Shown one piece after another: positions 474 to 10,583 of a stretch of DNA of 59,569 nucleotides (its first letter is position 1; every line of letters starts with the position of its first letter). A program made the translations under genes and the position numbers. The stretch comes from a bacterium (lineage in GTDB: Bacteria > Babelota > Babeliae > Babelales > RVW-14). Below the pieces are notes generated by a model. The model did no database searches and had not been told where the DNA came from. It worked only from the letters and a program-made list of their open reading frames with translations. The stretch spans positions 1-59,569 of the forward strand of contig JBDRBF010000083.1 of assembly GCA_043822925.1 (NCBI GenBank), in the 5' to 3' direction.

Positions 474-1935
474 AATTTTTTGGGTGTTTTGTGTGGTGAT
501 CTGTGTTTACCTGATACGCGTGTGCTGTTTGATAAATTAGCTCTTCTGAAAGTGGTGGCCCAAAAAACTGGAAACCAATGGGTAATTCGGTTTTGGTGAA
601 ACCACAGGGTAAAGAGAGAGCTGGCGTGCCTATAACGCAGTTTGGCACGGTGAAAAAGTCGGCCAAGTACATGGTTATTGGGTCGTCAATCAGTTCGCCA
701 ATTTTAAACGCTGGTGTTGGGGTTGTTGGGCTCATTAACAGATCGACGTCTTTAAATGCGTCTAAAAATTCTGCACGAATCATATCGCGTACTTTAAGCG
801 CGCGTGCATAAAAGTTTTCCTGATGCTTTGCTCCCAAAACATAGTTTCCGGTCAAAATTCTGCGTTTAACTTCTATGCCAAAGCCATCATGTCTGGTTTG
901 GTTATACATGCTTTCAAGATCTTTGCAGTCTTTTGCCCGGTTACCATAGAGCGTTCCGTCAAAACGGGATAAATTTGAAGCAGCTTCTGCGCGTGTGATA
1001 ATAAAATACACGGCGTTACCGTATTTTAAGTGTGGGATTTCGATAACTTTTGTTTTAGCGCCTAATTTGTGTAGTTGCTCGATTGCTTGCTCAAAAGCTT
1101 GCGATACTTCTGGGTGTATGCTTTTATTGTCGACGCAATCTTTTATTATCCCGATTGTTAGATTTTCTGGGAGTCTGCCGGTTAAGTTTTTAGTGTAATC
1201 TTTTGGGTCCATTTGTATGGACGTCGAATCTTTTGGATCTTTGCCTGAAAGTGCCGTCGCTACGAGAGCGTTATCATATACGGTGTGTGTTATGGGGGCG
1301 ATTTGGTCCAGTGACGAGCCAAATGCTATTAATCCGTAACGAGAGTTGAGCCCATATGTCGGATACATGCCGACAAGACCAGAGAACGATACAGGGGTAC
1401 GTATCGAGCCACCTGTTTCAGATCCAAGAGAGAAGGGGATTAGTCCTGCTGCGACAGCTGCGGTTGATCCAGAACTAGAGCCACCTGGCGTGCGTTCATG
1501 GTCCCACGGGTTAAGCGTTGGGCCGCAGGCTGAGAATTCGCCGGAAGTTCCCATGGCAAATTCGTCGCAATTGGTGCGAGCAATTGGCGTTGCACCTGCT
1601 TGTTTTAATCGCTTATGAACCGTAGCATCATAAGGTGCTTTGTAATTGCTTAAAATTTTTGAATTTGCTGATGTAATTTTGTCTTTTAAACAAATATTGT
1701 CTTTATAAACATAGGGGATATGCGCAAGTATGCCCGTGTTTTCTGAGTTATTATTTGTATTTTGTGCTTGTGAGCCTGTATTTTGCTCGTCTTTATCAAA
1801 TACTTCGAGAAAGCAGTTTAATTTTGTGTGATATTTTTTTATTCTTGCGTGATAGTAATTTTGAACTTCTGTAGGCGTAATTTCTTTTTTATTGAGCTTG
1901 TCTGTGAGCTCTTTTATGGTCATGAAAGCTTTCAT
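466..1935 (-). CDS. gatA: Asp/Glu-tRNA amidotransferase subunit A
   Basis: Amidase signature PGGSSSGS, GSETGGSIRTP, EAASNLSRFDG; follows gatC. Confidence 0.97.
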   Translation of the reverse strand: MKAFMTIKELTDKLNKKEITPTEVQNYYHARIKKYHTKLNCFLEVFDKDEQNTGSQAQNTNNNSENTGILAHIPYVYKDNICLKDKITSANSKILSNYKAPYDATVHKRLKQAGATPIARTNCDEFAMGTSGEFSACGPTLNPWDHERTPGGSSSGSTAAVAAGLIPFSLGSETGGSIRTPVSFSGLVGMYPTYGLNSRYGLIAFGSSLDQIAPITHTVYDNALVATALSGKDPKDSTSIQMDPKDYTKNLTGRLPENLTIGIIKDCVDNKSIHPEVSQAFEQAIEQLHKLGAKTKVIEIPHLKYGNAVYFIITRAEAASNLSRFDGTLYGNRAKDCKDLESMYNQTRHDGFGIEVKRRILTGNYVLGAKHQENFYARALKVRDMIRAEFLDAFKDVDLLMSPTTPTPAFKIGELIDDPITMYLADFFTVPNCVIGTPALSLPCGFTKTELPIGFQFFGPPLSEELIYQTAHAYQVNTDHHTKHPKNYD

Positions 1936-1962
1936 GTATGCTGCCCTTTTATTAAGCCAGAA

Positions 1963-2241
1963 TTAATCTAGAATTTTGGGAACAACGAAGTAATTATTAT
2001 TTGTTTCAGGGGCCAGTGTTAGAATGTCGTCTGAATTTTTTTGTATGGCGACGTCTTCGCGCAGTATATTTATATTTTTTGTCGATTGAGCCTGTGTTGT
2101 TAGTTTTACTTCTTGGAGTTCTTGAACAAAGTTTAAGATTTGGCCTATTTGTTTTTCAAAAAGCTCTATTTCTTGCTCATTAAGTTCGAGCGCTGAAAGT
2201 TTTGCTATTTTTAACAGTTCTTCTCTATCAAAATTTACCAT
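1963..2241 (-). CDS. gatC: Asp/Glu-tRNA amidotransferase subunit C
   Basis: 92 aa, IAKLSAL...LREDV...YFVVPKIL; directly upstream of gatA. Confidence 0.95.
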   Translation of the reverse strand: MVNFDREELLKIAKLSALELNEQEIELFEKQIGQILNFVQELQEVKLTTQAQSTKNINILREDVAIQKNSDDILTLAPETNNNYFVVPKILD

Positions 2242-2272
2242 TATTTATCTCCTAAATTTGTCATGTCAAGGC

Positions 2273-2375
2273 GCGCTCATCCTGCCTGTGCACCGTAGCC
2301 TTGGCGTAGATGTAAGCCTGTCGAAGGGGATCTGGCGGAGCCCGGCGCAGCTTCTCGCCAAGCCTGGGGATCTTC
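2273..2375. repeat. Cluster of REP-like palindromic elements, one nested in another
   Basis: GC-rich intergenic island. gcgctcatcctg|30-bp insert|agcctgtcgaag matches the reverse complement of 49205-49228 at 23/24 once the insert is removed. Followed by a cccggcgcagc...aagcctggg hairpin. Confidence 0.7.
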
Positions 2376-2383
2376 GTCAAAAT

Positions 2384-3790
2384 TTAAACTTTTTTATGTT
2401 GCCATGTGTTGCGGGTAATATACTTGAAGAGCACAATAGACATGATACCCGTAGTTATATAATAACAGCCGTAAATCATAACGAATTTAATATTGTGGTT
2501 TTGTATGGGTAAGTGCGCCGCAATATAGGAAGAGGGGAAGAAGAATAAACCGACGACAACAAGGCGTACCCACATGACGGATTTTACGTCACCGGCTCCA
2601 CGTAAAGCGCCTGAAAATATAAGTTGAACGATGTCAAAGACAACAAGTAAGCTTATCATGGGTAAAACTGCTACGCCGAAATCAGTAAATTGATTTTTTG
2701 GGTCAAAAAGCCCAACAAAGAAACGTGCGTAAACGCACATTATTGTGAGCGTTATTCCAGCTGATATAAAGGTCATTAATAAGATTTTTTTTATATTATT
2801 TTTTGCGCCTTCAAAGTCTTTAGCGCCGAGTCTATTACTGACTAAAAAAGTAACAACGGTTGCAAATGCAATTGCAGGGAAAAAGGCGCAACGTTCAAGG
2901 TTTTTTACGACATCGAATGTGGTGATAGCAGTTGTTCCCATTGGGGCGATCATTTTTGCTAGCCATGGGTAACAGAGCGCAAAGGTTATTTTGTCGACAA
3001 TAATTGGCCAGCTTAAGTTAATCAGTTGCCAGGTTCTTTTGATATTAAAAAACGAAAAAAACATGCGTTGAAAGTATTTTTTATAATCTGGATTGTACAT
3101 AATGTAGCCGATGGCAATGGCATTCATGGTTCCGTATTGAAGAATGGTTGCAATGGCGGATCCGTGTAGGCCGAGATTTGGAAAGCCAAATTTCCCTAAT
3201 ACGAACGCTATTTCAAAAAAGATAAAAGTGCCGATTCCAATTAAGTTTATAATCATGGGCATACGAGTGTTTTTTACGGCACGCATAAATCCGATAAGGC
3301 CGAGCAAGCTAAATATGAGCAAGATACCAATCGATTTCAATCGTAAGAATGGCGCTCCAATTGTTACAATTTCTCCGGTAACGCCAAGCCAGTGATAGAT
3401 GCTTTCTGCTGCAAAAATGATGATTACAAATTGGATTATCCCGATTAATGTTGTTACCCAAAAAGTGTTGCCCAGTTCTTGCCCGCATTTTTCGTATTCT
3501 TTGGCCCCGTTAAAACGACCGATAATGGCTATGCTGGCGACAGGAATCGCTTCGGCAAACTTTGTGAGAGAGTATAAGAAGTTTGTGGCCAGCGCGAGTG
3601 CTCCATAAGAATTAAGTGATTGGGAGTTTGAAATTACATATGAATCGATAACGGGGGGTAAAATCACCAAAATCAAGCCTGTGATTGCTTCCGGTAACCA
3701 GTACGTAAGTATTTGGGCTATTGACTCGCCTTCTTTGATGCGTCCGATATCTTTAATTTTTTCAAATGTATAAGTTATAAAATTTGCCAC
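2384..3790 (-). CDS. MATE family efflux transporter
   Basis: Many TM helices, two-fold internal symmetry, GALRGAGD and MRAVKNTRMPM motifs. Probable start GTG 3790 after AAGGGG. Confidence 0.9.
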   Translation of the reverse strand: MANFITYTFEKIKDIGRIKEGESIAQILTYWLPEAITGLILVILPPVIDSYVISNSQSLNSYGALALATNFLYSLTKFAEAIPVASIAIIGRFNGAKEYEKCGQELGNTFWVTTLIGIIQFVIIIFAAESIYHWLGVTGEIVTIGAPFLRLKSIGILLIFSLLGLIGFMRAVKNTRMPMIINLIGIGTFIFFEIAFVLGKFGFPNLGLHGSAIATILQYGTMNAIAIGYIMYNPDYKKYFQRMFFSFFNIKRTWQLINLSWPIIVDKITFALCYPWLAKMIAPMGTTAITTFDVVKNLERCAFFPAIAFATVVTFLVSNRLGAKDFEGAKNNIKKILLMTFISAGITLTIMCVYARFFVGLFDPKNQFTDFGVAVLPMISLLVVFDIVQLIFSGALRGAGDVKSVMWVRLVVVGLFFFPSSYIAAHLPIQNHNIKFVMIYGCYYITTGIMSIVLFKYITRNTWQHKKV

Positions 3791-7593: not shown

Positions 7594-8385
7594 CTATTCG
7601 AACGTTTTTGTATCGATTTGTTGTTCTCCTAAAATTGATACAGTAATAATAGCTTCAACAATCTTGACAGCTTGCTCTTGTGTTAGTCTCTTGAAAGAAC
7701 GGGTTTGCATGTCAAAGTCGTCATGAATTTTTTTGAATTCAGGTAATAAAACGGTTGGAATATTCTTTTTATGAGTGTGCCATTGCCTGAAAAAACCAGC
7801 AAGTGCATCTTGGCACGCTTGAGGCTTAGCTTCAAGCCATAAACCTATTTTTTTAGTGACATAATTTGCAAGAAACCAACAAAGTGTTCCTGTTGAAATA
7901 CTTATGCCAATTTGTAGTGCTTGTTTTTTGTCTATAGAGCTGAGCTCCGTTTTTTTTGTAACTTGGGTTACATGTGTGCTTTTTGGCCTGAGCGCTCCTG
8001 GCTTTTTCCTGGGGGTAATGGGTGTTTGCGTTTCAAAGTCTTCGCGTGCTCTTCCTGCGAAGAATTCAAAAATTAAATATGTCACAATTGGTTGGAATGC
8101 CGCAGTAAGAATTACTGAATTATTTTTTATGAGAGCTCCAAGTTCTTGAGTAAAAGCGTAATTATTTTCGTTTTTTATGTCGATAATTTTTCTTAAGTAT
8201 GTCCATTTTTCTTGTTCTGCTTCTAGTTTGGGCATTTGTTTGGGTATATTAAATTGTGTGAGTTGGGTTATTTGTTGCGTTTGTTTTGTCTTGGGCATTT
8301 TTATCTCTGCATTAAGCAAACTCGTTATGCAAATTAATGCTCCGGAAAGTACGATTTTATGTAGATATGATTTACGTGTTGTCAT
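7594..8385 (-). CDS. Hypothetical exported/membrane protein
   Basis: 263-aa ORF, signal-peptide-like N-terminus (…CITSLLNA), two further hydrophobic segments; no family recognised. Confidence 0.75.
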   Translation of the reverse strand: MTTRKSYLHKIVLSGALICITSLLNAEIKMPKTKQTQQITQLTQFNIPKQMPKLEAEQEKWTYLRKIIDIKNENNYAFTQELGALIKNNSVILTAAFQPIVTYLIFEFFAGRAREDFETQTPITPRKKPGALRPKSTHVTQVTKKTELSSIDKKQALQIGISISTGTLCWFLANYVTKKIGLWLEAKPQACQDALAGFFRQWHTHKKNIPTVLLPEFKKIHDDFDMQTRSFKRLTQEQAVKIVEAIITVSILGEQQIDTKTFE

Positions 8386-8570
8386 GGAATCTCTTACTAA
8401 AATAAACTATTAAACGATATTCTTACTTTGTAATATGTGCGTTATTTGTGCTTTCTAGGGGGTTAGAGTAGCAGAAGTATTGATTTATAAAAGTTTTTTT
8501 TAGGTTGGGCTTTGTTGGAGGCGTGGGATTTTGTGATTTTGGCAGTTTTTTGAGGTGAATGCTTATAGAA

Positions 8571-8599
8571 TTGACGCATTGTAATTAATTTGTTAATGT
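8571..8599 (+). promoter_or_regulatory. Putative sigma70 promoter of the effector gene
   Basis: TTGACG-17 bp-TAATGT with an extended TG. Confidence 0.45.
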
Positions 8600-8726
8600 G
8601 TTAATGCTTCAAAAGTCAGTAAAGTGTTGCTTTGTTGTTTCAGTGAGAAAAGTTTTTTGAAGTGTCTCTTTTGATTTTTATTTGTTTGTTTTTATTAATA
8701 ATGTACTTATTTGAGGGGGTTATATC

Positions 8727-10484
8727 ATGGAAAATAATCTAAAAAAACTATCGGTTTTGACGTTAAGTTTCTTTTTATTATTAGGTATTGGTTTTGATGC
8801 GCAGGCTATGTGTCCAGAGCTTGATGATGATATGAAAGAGCAAGATGGAAATACTGAGAGGGACAGAAGCGGAATTTTATTTGGAGGCTTAAAAGAATGT
8901 AAAAAACGAAAGCATGACAATCTTGGAGTAGATAACATAGATTACAGTGGAGAGTTTTTTAACAAAAGGCGTAAAACTCAAAAAGAGAATCAAGAAGATA
9001 ATCAAAAAAGAATAAATAAAAAGATAGAAAGTCTTATCGCCTCAGGGCAAGAAGATGAGAAGCTAAATTGTTTTTCTGACGCTATATTATTAAATGATAT
9101 TGAAATGGCGACGTCCATGGTTGCACGGCTTTTGTTTAGTGAAGAACAAGTAACCGCATTTTTTGTACGTGCGGTAACTTCTGGTCGTGATGAAATTGTA
9201 AAAAACATGCTCGAATCTGAACAATTTGCTGATCAAATAAAAATTGAGTCTAATATGGCGATTCTTTGGGCTTCCGGACATCATGGGTGCTTTAAAACTG
9301 TTAAAGCTATTTTTAATAATAAAAAAATATGGAATCAAATTAGTCCTGAAGATAAAAGCGATGCTCTTTTGCGAGCAGTTGCTGGCTTTGAGCGTTCGAC
9401 ATATCCTGGACGATTGGAAATTGTTGAATTTATTACCCAAGAAGAAGACTTTTGGTCTGTAATTAAAAAAGACTATGCGCAAGCTGCATTTCTTGATGCT
9501 TGGAATAATAGTTCTCAGCGACCTGCTTTTATGGGCGGAGGCCCGATAAATGTTTGTGCCGATAAGATTTTTAACTGTTTGGTTAAGCGTATGGAAGCTG
9601 AAGGCTTTGGTTTTGTTGATAAGCTGTTTGAGGTAAAACAAGTATTTAATTTTGATGAATCATTGGTTCAAAAGCAGCGTCCTATAAAAGATTTGTCTGG
9701 TGAACGTGTTTTTAAGAAACCTCGAAAAAAGGTAATTGAAGTAAAAACGAGTAAAGAGAAACGATCGATTCGGCTTACATCATTGGTTCAAAAAGAGCCT
9801 CTCGATTGTGGGTATTATGCTCTATACAATGCAATAAAGCTTAAAGCAAAAGTAGATAATAGAACGATAAATACGCTTAAAGAAAAAGATTTGATTGGAC
9901 GGCAAGAAGATTATGATACCTGGGTAGTCGAGCAGAAAACTTTTTTGGCCAAATATTTTGAAGAAGAAGTTCGGGAAATAATTGGTGATTATAATACGTC
10001 TCAATCTAAAGAAGAACAAGATAGAGCAATAAATAAATTAGGTACGCGTTTGATATACGTCGACAATGAGACAAAAGCTATTGATGAAGAGCAAGTAAAG
10101 GCGTATGTACAAAGATCGGTAGAGTATCTATCTGGTGGGGCGCTTGAGAAATTGATAGCAAGAAGTGTCATTTCTTTGGCGTATGTCTTGCAGTCACATA
10201 GTGAGAATATAGATTTAATAGATGCTTTGCTTGGTAATTCTATGCAAAATTTGGTTGATTATGGATACGGTGATTTTTTTGATAAAATAAAAGCATTTAG
10301 AGAAAATGGGATCCCGTTTTTCTTAATAGTTAATTTTCGTAGCCATTATTTGACCGTTGTATTTGCTCAGCATGACATGTTTATTTGTGATTCTTTGAAT
10401 CATGTTTTGACTGATAATCAGAAGTATAGAAACCTTGTTCAGGCTTTATATAAGCTTGTTCTTATCAATGAATTACCAGAATAA
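8727..10484 (+). CDS. Putative secreted effector: signal peptide, basic NLS-like patches, ankyrin-like repeats, C-terminal papain-fold (Josephin-like) Cys protease domain
   Basis: Signal peptide ending AQA; KKRKH, KRRK, KKPRKK; RAVTSGRDEIVKNML and WASGHHGCFKTVKAI ankyrin-like; Q355/C361 (QKEPLDCGYYALYN), H540 (VNFRSHYLTV), D555 (ICDSL); RBS GAGGGG. Confidence 0.65.
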   Translation: MENNLKKLSVLTLSFFLLLGIGFDAQAMCPELDDDMKEQDGNTERDRSGILFGGLKECKKRKHDNLGVDNIDYSGEFFNKRRKTQKENQEDNQKRINKKIESLIASGQEDEKLNCFSDAILLNDIEMATSMVARLLFSEEQVTAFFVRAVTSGRDEIVKNMLESEQFADQIKIESNMAILWASGHHGCFKTVKAIFNNKKIWNQISPEDKSDALLRAVAGFERSTYPGRLEIVEFITQEEDFWSVIKKDYAQAAFLDAWNNSSQRPAFMGGGPINVCADKIFNCLVKRMEAEGFGFVDKLFEVKQVFNFDESLVQKQRPIKDLSGERVFKKPRKKVIEVKTSKEKRSIRLTSLVQKEPLDCGYYALYNAIKLKAKVDNRTINTLKEKDLIGRQEDYDTWVVEQKTFLAKYFEEEVREIIGDYNTSQSKEEQDRAINKLGTRLIYVDNETKAIDEEQVKAYVQRSVEYLSGGALEKLIARSVISLAYVLQSHSENIDLIDALLGNSMQNLVDYGYGDFFDKIKAFRENGIPFFLIVNFRSHYLTVVFAQHDMFICDSLNHVLTDNQKYRNLVQALYKLVLINELPE

Positions 10485-10524: not shown

Positions 10525-10583
10525 TAAGAAAAGCGAGTGGCATGATCCCGATTAACCCAGGATCATGCCACTCGCTTTTCTTA
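10525..10583. terminator. Bidirectional terminator-like hairpin between the convergent effector gene and hpf
   Basis: Perfect 24-bp stem taagaaaagcgagtggcatgatcc / ggatcatgccactcgcttttctta with an 11-nt loop. Confidence 0.8.

Follow-up and report, generated by a model that had tools for sequence, protein, structure and literature searches.

What kind of enzyme is encoded at positions 8727..10484 of a 59,569-nt stretch of Dependentiae DNA (contig JBDRBF010000083.1 of assembly GCA_043822925.1, hereafter the window), and to which group of proteases does it belong? An earlier note, made from the letters of this DNA, had proposed a secreted, nucleus-directed deubiquitinase of the Josephin type delivered by an intracellular bacterium into a protist host. 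We agree with the setting in protists, and the open reading frame (ORF) is borne out as one uninterrupted frame of 585 residues. The comparisons described below assign the encoded protein, called the window protein here, to a protease family that is spread through Dependentiae and whose catalytic domain is homologous to the Ulp1-like proteases of the CE clan with its two halves in swapped order.

A Dependentiae-wide protease family

The translation of the window protein carries Gln355 and Cys361 in QKEPLDCGYYALYNA, His540 in IVNFRSHYLTVVF and Asp555 in DMFICDSLN, exactly at the residues that the earlier note had named. The linear order is Gln355-Cys361-His540-Asp555, with a distance of 179 residues from Cys to His. 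Used alone as a query, the window protein matched no NCBIfam family, gave nothing significant against Pfam and nothing meaningful against the sequences of the Protein Data Bank (PDB), and a word-indexed single-sequence search returned only the window protein itself. In an exhaustive phmmer search, a single relative (P0002, E = 5.1e-7) turned up among 1.84 billion representatives, and a profile search of the word-indexed collection yielded four proteins, the window's own included. A six-frame search of 60 related genomes produced three faint matches that fall precisely on the Cys region and the His/Asp region, and the ORFs behind these matches encode a signal peptide, CGY[YF]A..N, then HW, then DS.

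Iterated profile searches led to a 17-sequence alignment in which the identity of the other rows to the window domain ranges from 15 to 29%. Seven residues, Q355, C361, G362, N368, H540, D555 and S556, are invariant in all 17 sequences. In a larger set of 41 aligned segments, drawn from 40 ORF entries and 39 distinct proteins, Cys and His are present in every segment, Gln in 40, Gly and Ser in 39 each, Asp in 38 (the exceptions being one Asn and two alignment gaps) and Asn in 35. The conservation of C361, H540 and D555, which the earlier note had suggested as a check on its proposal, therefore holds in both sets.

Sequence analysis of Babela massiliensis had already revealed a circularly permuted Ulp1 homologue with signal peptides (Pagnier et al. 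2015, PMC4378268), and Additional file 13 of that paper aligns the proteins and gives a two-block HHpred match to Ulp1. The claim that no such enzyme had been described from this lineage is contradicted by this publication of 2015. Three rows of our alignment (L014, L023 and L025/L033) read identical to Babela_gene_102, 104 and 417 in that file. A profile built without the Babela rows retrieved the Babela proteins (best E = 2.9e-5, in G067; G000 denotes the genome carrying the window protein and other G numbers denote related Dependentiae genomes). Conversely, a profile of only the three Babela rows ranked the window protein first of 903 ORFs of its genome with an E value of 7.9e-4, the next ORF having 0.31, and a profile of 13 other members, from which the window and Babela rows were excluded, matched the window protein at E = 6.6e-29. 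Sequence comparison in both directions places the window protein in one family with the published Babela proteins, a family that extends across Dependentiae.

The Babela peptidases and the window protein share the phylum, the N-terminal signal peptide and a layout in which a Gln-Cys module is followed by a long helical stretch and then by the His-Trp and Asp-Ser strands, and their profiles retrieve each other. They differ in that the Babela peptidases are about 15-18% identical to the window domain, have 290-328 residues between Cys and His rather than 179, and have an AAA ATPase at the C-terminus (Pfam AAA E = 1.1e-10 in one ORF), whereas the window protein has no AAA match and instead bears an N-terminal ankyrin-like region and basic patches. 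The AAA fusion together with the permuted form was called 'unique to B. massiliensis' (PMC4378268). In our set the AAA fusion occurs in 3 of the 39 family proteins, all of Babela type, and it defines a Babela-type subfamily rather than the catalytic domain. A search of the literature that is free to read, bioRxiv supplements excepted, found no paper after that of 2015 on permuted Ulp1 in Dependentiae. The permuted Ulp1-like peptidases have been known since 2015, and the window protein is best described as a variant of them with a new architecture.

Homology to CE-clan proteases with the halves swapped

A search of 177,635 PDB sequences with the 17-sequence profile, reporting matches at E ≤ 10, returned 6dg4, a Ulp1-like SUMO protease (E = 1.8e-4), 5ham, which is RickCE (E = 4.1e-4), 7fiu, the deubiquitinase (DUB) domain of Wolbachia CidB (E = 2.2e-3), and 1euv, yeast Ulp1 (E = 0.013), with SENP1 and SENP8 next. 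CE-clan chains make up 11 of the 16 matches, and neither a Josephin chain nor an OTU chain is among them. In 5ham, 7fiu and 1euv, the C-terminal half of the profile aligns with the first part of the chain and the N-terminal Cys module with its last part. For yeast Ulp1, profile positions 90-219 fall on chain residues 11-155, which comprise the N-terminal helical part and the His/Asp strands, and positions 16-41 fall on residues 163-188. Canonical Ulp1 domains carry the strand-Gln-Cys-helix module in last place, the domain of the window protein in first place. An earlier 4-sequence profile had matched four PDB sequences, all of them CE-clan proteins and all at the Cys motif; one of these also matched at the His region, upstream of the Cys motif.

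The same crossing is seen against Pfam. Peptidase_C48 matches 6 of the 17 members at E ≤ 10, two of them above the gathering score, and RickCE_cat matches 2 of the 17. The N-terminal Cys region of the members maps to positions 143-188 of the C48 profile and their C-terminal His/Asp region to positions 75-137. When the family profile was split into halves, all 44 ORF entries matched by both halves had the Cys half first and the His half downstream of it; the reverse was never seen. Four canonical C48 ORFs from the phylum served as a control. In them, HW..DS precedes Q..DCG by 50-70 residues, and the half-profiles fall on these motifs, weakly in the case of the Cys half.

The family thus has the sequence signature of CE-clan proteases (Ulp1/SENP Peptidase_C48, RickCE, the Wolbachia CidB DUB and SseL), namely Gln, a few residues, Cys-Gly, Asn at Cys+7, His-Trp and Asp-Ser-Leu, together with a significant profile match, the window protein having Tyr for Trp. 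Unlike these proteases, in which the linear order of the adenain fold is His-Asp...Gln-Cys, the family reads Gln-Cys...His-Asp in all 44 entries. This residue order had led the earlier note to exclude the CE clan, an exclusion that the significant matches in swapped blocks do not support. Circular permutations are common in the superfamily, for which LupA and LotA are cited as a pair in a 2023 classification (PMC10318531). Since the significant CE-clan profile matches fall in two swapped blocks, a circular permutation of the CE clan is indicated, and judged by sequence the protease domain (about 240 residues, 345-585) is probably a circularly permuted relative of Ulp1, SENP and RickCE, that is, of CE-clan enzymes with an adenain fold, situated within a Sec-exported modular protein.

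Residues 325-585 were modelled confidently with AlphaFold2 using the family alignment (predicted local distance difference test, pLDDT, 83.4; predicted template modelling score, pTM, 0.80; protein numbering is model numbering plus 324). Sequence and model together bear out the papain-order Gln-Cys-His-Asp cysteine protease domain with a long helical stretch between Cys and His that the earlier note had read. The length of this stretch varies within the family, the Cys-to-His distance ranging from 125 to 328 residues. In a structural comparison, the first 17 rows are all ubiquitin-directed enzymes; an OTU and a Josephin are tied at the top, and other OTUs, VTD enzymes, TssM, BpJOS and PcJOS also appear. 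CE-clan structures align to the helical subdomain and the His/Asp sheet, about model residues 58-261. Foldseek gave no match of the model at E ≤ 0.001 among PDB structures. Among the viral models of BFVD there was likewise none at E ≤ 0.001, the best being a segment of a Hyperionvirus protein (E = 7.9e-3) and an OTU-like protein of Clandestinovirus (E = 0.018); a kinship with giant viruses to which Atlas clusters had pointed (scores 0.85-0.86, under the 0.9 bar) was not confirmed by this search.

These structural matches bear on the Josephin reading, according to which the protein is a true member of that family (MJD, MEROPS C86) and thereby a deubiquitinase or 'clippase' of the bacterial Josephin type, enlarged by a long insertion of helices. 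The window protein shares with ataxin-3, JOSD1/2 and the bacterial Josephins and clippases the Gln-Cys-His-Asx order and a 15-residue spacing from His to Asx, just as the earlier note had observed, and bacterial Josephins are an established effector class that serves as secreted effectors of intracellular bacteria (bioRxiv 10.1101/2024.07.24.604956). The structure prediction put forward as a check upheld the resemblance in order and fold, but this resemblance is tied with that to several other deubiquitinase folds. In sequence, weak Pfam matches over the His/Asn strands occur in a few family members, the best of which reaches 23.3 bits (E = 6.2e-5) against a cut-off of 26; none of the 261 genomes of the phylum reaches that cut-off, and the proposed membership in the Josephin family is not upheld. 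The window protein itself has no match to Josephin (Pfam PF02099) at E ≤ 10, and only 2 of the 17 members do (best E = 0.064), compared with the 6 that match C48 and the 2 that match RickCE_cat; in the PDB search, CE-clan chains reach 1.8e-4 where Josephin has no chain at all. Moreover, the third catalytic residue is Asn in Josephins and Asp in the window protein, whose helical region between Cys and His is much longer. The bacterial Josephins listed in the accessible part of the preprint come from Simkania, Burkholderia, Pigmentiphaga, Herbaspirillum and Parachlamydia and not from this phylum (bioRxiv 10.1101/2024.07.24.604956). Altogether, we regard Josephin membership as improbable.

The tied OTU match raises another possibility, an OTU-type deubiquitinase akin to the LotA-like enzymes of Legionella whose CE-like motifs reflect an old kinship among papain-fold deubiquitinases. 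With LupA, a circularly permuted form in close kinship with LotA, permutation already connects the OTU-like and the CE-like enzymes, and the pair provides a precedent for secreted bacterial DUB folds in both papain and permuted order (PMC10318531). However, no OTU family or chain appeared in any sequence or profile search, the family shows no sequence signal to LotA or LupA, and the structural match has a root-mean-square deviation of 5.3 Å. The direction is also opposite, because the unusual form here is a CE-type sequence in papain order, and the conserved Gln-x5-Cys-Gly...Asn and His-Trp...Asp-Ser are the motifs of CE-clan alignments. An OTU-type enzyme therefore seems very improbable to us. 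According to a 2026 review, every known bacterial deubiquitinase effector has one of two folds, either papain or, as a circular permutation of it, the adenain fold to which the CE clan belongs (PMC13720258).

Several points weigh against a circularly permuted CE-clan protease that is active and exported to a host. The window protein alone gave no match to the CE-clan Pfam models even at E ≤ 10, and the link runs through profiles of the family. Among full-length structural matches, enzymes with CA order (OTU 6.2, Josephin 6.1) rank highest and not CE-clan proteases. The convergence of Cys361, His540 and Asp555 into a triad is suggested by the placement of the secondary structure elements in the model. 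Trp follows the catalytic His in 39 of the 41 segments, and the window protein is the sole case with Tyr (Tyr541). Several Babela paralogues look inactivated (PMC4378268). The CE clan includes acetyltransferases and enzymes with differing modifier preferences (PMC13720258). Finally, a Sec signal is all that was seen of an export route.

Protein architecture, gene context and distribution

The features of the gene and protein are collected in Table 1.

Table 1. Coordinates of the gene 8727..10484, its protein features and adjoining elements in the window.
Feature	Residues	Window position	Strand	Basis
Shine-Dalgarno-like GAGGGGG		8713..8719	+	spacing to ATG 7 nt; from the 60 bases 5' of the start codon
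Whole gene	585 codons + stop	8727..10484	+	single open frame
Sec-type signal peptide, ends AQA	1-27	8727..8807	+	read directly from sequence
Basic/acidic linker with KKRKH and KRRK	28-96	8808..9014	+	
Basic patch KKRKH	59-63	8901-8915	+	translation
Basic patch KRRK	80-83	8964-8975	+	translation
Degenerate ankyrin-like helical-repeat region	about 97-265	9015..9521	+	weak sequence matches, Atlas, low-confidence all-helical model
Basic patch KKPRKK, in linker preceding protease domain	330-335	9714..9731	+	translation
Cys module: strand 346-351, Gln355, Cys361 at N-terminus of helix 358-377, Gly362, Asn368		9762..9857	+	model E22-27, H34-53; invariant columns
Helical subdomain between Cys helix and beta-sheet	393-527	9903..10307	+	model
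His/Asp module: strands 531-537, 540-547 (His540 first, Tyr541), 550-555 (Asp555 last), Ser556		10317..10391	+	model E207-213, E216-223, E226-231
C-terminal helix	565-580	10419..10466	+	model H241-256
Perfect GC-rich hairpin, 20-bp stem		10531..10577		between stop codon and convergent HPF gene

The N-terminus, MENNLKKLSVLTLSFFLLLGIGFDAQA, consists of an n-region with KK, a hydrophobic core and the terminal AQA, and the signal peptide that the earlier note had read lies where it was placed. A similar hydrophobic N-terminus was found in 29 of the 39 family proteins by a crude rule and by eye in most of the remaining ones. The three basic patches likewise lie exactly at the residues described. 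Residues 28-70 are predicted to be disordered, with pLDDT below 50 for model residues 1-43 of the low-confidence N-terminal model, and around the KKPRKK linker the pLDDT is about 53-55 (model residues 1-20 of the protease-domain model). Two [KR]4 runs arose in 3.4% of 20,000 shuffles of the window protein, and two or more such runs are present in 17 of the 903 ORFs of at least 200 residues in this genome; the basic patches thus somewhat exceed chance. Whether they direct the protein to a nucleus is a guess, with which the position of the first patch in a predicted disordered stretch is compatible but of which it is no proof. Among other members, P0004 and the G001 and G022 proteins also have short basic stretches, placed either behind the signal peptide or at the C-terminus.

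For the ankyrin-like repeats, the proposal is sustained weakly. The N-terminal region (residues 28-324) had weak matches in six other genomes (E = 3e-5 to 9e-3), and all five of the ORFs inspected behind such matches are plain ankyrin-repeat proteins. In the ESM Atlas, the region has feature scores of 0.93-0.94, and ankyrin clusters account for 9 of its 10 structure rows, with template modelling scores of 0.40-0.53. Pfam Ank_4 matches the window protein at E = 0.019 with 15.7 bits, under its cut-off of 22.7. An AlphaFold model built for residues 28-340 from the single sequence is of poor quality (pLDDT 55), is all-helical and gives only weak matches to ankyrin and other helical repeats. Mainly from the weak sequence matches and the Atlas, the region at about residues 97-265 is likely to consist of degenerate ankyrin-like helical repeats.

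The gene is the lone plus-strand gene among minus-strand housekeeping genes, and the bin 8001-10000 has the lowest GC content in the window (0.341). On its 5' side lie a type I phosphodiesterase gene and a gene for a 263-residue exported protein that has no assigned function. The latter ORF (7594-8385, minus strand) is divergent to the protease gene and encodes a signal-peptide-like start and a second hydrophobic stretch, with no Pfam family. On the 3' side, a convergent gene for the ribosome hibernation factor (HPF) is followed by one for an ABC-transporter ATPase, assigned by Pfam ABC_tran only; from its position alone one might guess that this is LptB. The two ORFs beyond it were taken by eye, with no family search, as the Der GTPase and DnaX. 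The hairpin between the protease and HPF genes is probably a two-way terminator and not a member of the palindromic repeat families of this genome, and blastn-short found no second copy of it in the 1.52-Mb assembly.

The distribution of the family was examined in 261 Dependentiae genomes, the same set serving for the phylum-level and order-level searches; the Babela proteins are found in a genome of the same order as the window genome, which agrees with its placement in Dependentiae. At E ≤ 0.001, the 17-sequence profile matched 120 of the 261 genomes and 85 of the 189 of good quality. The matches represent 87 of 145 genera and number as many as 9 in one genome; the weaker matches among the 120 genomes may include canonical CE domains, since the order of the halves was checked for the fetched ORFs only. 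A contiguous canonical C48 domain is rare, with matches in 7 of the 261 genomes at E ≤ 0.001, 4 of which are over the cut-off. A scan with the motif CGY[YF]A[LMA][YFI]N[AG] gave 27 pattern matches in species genomes and 25 in metagenome contigs, two being confirmed in each, and in viral contigs the pattern minus its last position gave 10 matches with none confirmed; this pattern is too narrow to judge the spread beyond the phylum.

Some family domains stand alone or in tandem, and others are joined to an AAA ATPase, to a USP domain or, in the window protein, to an ankyrin-like region. At E ≤ 0.01, Pfam recognises no family in 25 of the 39 family proteins, which are therefore missed by standard annotation. 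Matches in the set are to a CE-clan model (six proteins), the AAA ATPase (three), Josephin under its cut-off (two), a USP domain in the same ORF (one) and Peptidase C78 (one).

The window genome encodes two further members, on contigs C29 and C38. The C29 paralogue (381 residues; G000:C29:3622-4767, L028:631-1776, plus strand) has an exported N-terminus, the Cys motif GCSFHAQKN and RHWVAV..ADS. Its His/Asp half is over the cut-off of Pfam Peptidase_C48 (25.9 bits), and its residues 50-256 give a weak Josephin match (15.9 bits). The C38 paralogue is an exported protein of 806 residues (G000:C38:34676-37096, L032:677-3097, plus strand) with tandem permuted domains at about residues 51-253 and 515-775. 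In G020, tandem family genes on contig C15 (L080:733-1701 and 1799-3166) encode long poly-Ser tracts and an Arg/Lys-rich stretch after the signal peptide, and the same is seen at L079 in G027 (contig C32).

Ubiquitin context and a possible role in the host

Some family members are found beside ubiquitin-specific protease (USP) genes or domains. In G001, a family gene (L002:697-1779) lies 2 nt from a gene for a secreted USP-type protein (L002:2-694, minus strand; Pfam UCH E = 4.5e-19). In G016, an ORF of 3751 residues (L022, G016:C17) has a permuted Ulp1-like domain with a USP domain downstream (Pfam UCH E = 1.2e-8). A USP-like His box was also noted in this ORF upstream of the fetched part. 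Exported ubiquitin-like proteins are encoded in 13 of the 261 genomes (Pfam ubiquitin over its cut-off). In one of them (L087:1417-1992, G025:C12), the ubiquitin fold directly follows the signal peptide and ends in CGGGG before an 85-residue tail, like a ubiquitin-fusion precursor, and tandem genes in G233 (L086:230-1321 and 1372-2382, contig C9) encode ubiquitin-like domains that have no Gly-Gly.

A ubiquitin-type substrate is suggested for the window protein because of the homology with Ulp1, SENP, RickCE and CidB, because the top of the structure list consists of deubiquitinases only and because USP genes or domains stand beside family members. An alternative is a papain-fold enzyme without activity towards ubiquitin-like modifiers: a peptidase of the periplasm or cell surface that processes proteins exported by the bacterium itself (of the double-glycine leader type), an acetyltransferase of CE type or a binding module that is catalytically idle. 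The only evident signal is of the Sec type, which alone delivers to the periplasm; acetyltransferases such as YopJ belong to the CE clan (PMC13720258); the window protein is the only one with Tyr and not Trp next to the catalytic His; and the exported ubiquitin-like proteins of the phylum, one with a GGGG site before its tail, might be bacterial substrates. However, the first 17 structural rows hold ubiquitin-directed enzymes throughout, the full Gln/Cys/His/Asp set is intact and conserved, and the family is linked to USP domains in genes or ORFs and joined to modules of eukaryote type (ankyrin-like here, AAA in Babela). In addition, the exported ankyrin proteins of the phylum are generally taken to act in the host (PMC4378268, PMC6561590). 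We consider this alternative rather unlikely, though it deserves to be kept in mind, and continue with the permuted Ulp1-like protease directed at ubiquitin-like modifiers.

For such a protease, we infer catalytic activity, substrate, export past the periplasm into a host and nuclear localisation of the window protein along the following lines. The Sec pathway would export a modular protein composed of the signal peptide (residues 1-27), a charged floppy stretch, the ankyrin-like region at about residues 97-265 and the protease (residues 345-585). It would then be released to the protist host cell, as is assumed for the signal-peptide-bearing ankyrin proteins of the phylum (PMC4378268, PMC6561590). 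Such proteins of Babela are presumed to reach the amoeba cytoplasm, and no secretion system other than type II was detected in Babela, as reported in PMC4378268. The ankyrin-like region may select or bind a host target, and the basic patches could possibly carry the protein to the nucleus. As a putative thiol isopeptidase, the protein would use Cys361 at the N-terminus of a helix, activated by His540 that is oriented by Asp555, and Gln355 would help to form the oxyanion hole. The cut would be made after the C-terminal Gly-Gly of ubiquitin or of a ubiquitin-like modifier of SUMO or NEDD8 type on host proteins. No biochemical test of any family member was found in the literature.

A CE-type sequence in papain order bears on the relation between the papain and adenain topologies. 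Tandem copies are the classical path to circular permutation, and tandem copies are present in the C38 paralogue, L054 and L080. On a bolder view, which we offer as speculation with the odds against it, the family would be a living link between two topologies of ubiquitin-type cysteine proteases, combining an Ulp1/adenain sequence with the papain/Josephin order, and would be either a survivor of the ancestral arrangement of the CE clan or a reversion by tandem duplication. The window protein would then be a nucleus-directed deSUMOylase or deubiquitinase exported into the protist host, perhaps together with the exported ubiquitin-like proteins of the phylum.

The finding introduces no new principle. 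It shows that the family is phylum-wide and mostly unannotated, and corrects the published claim that it is unique to Babela. The family provides a candidate set in which new specificities for ubiquitin, SUMO or NEDD8 may be sought, and through which it may be learned how Dependentiae take over protist cells.

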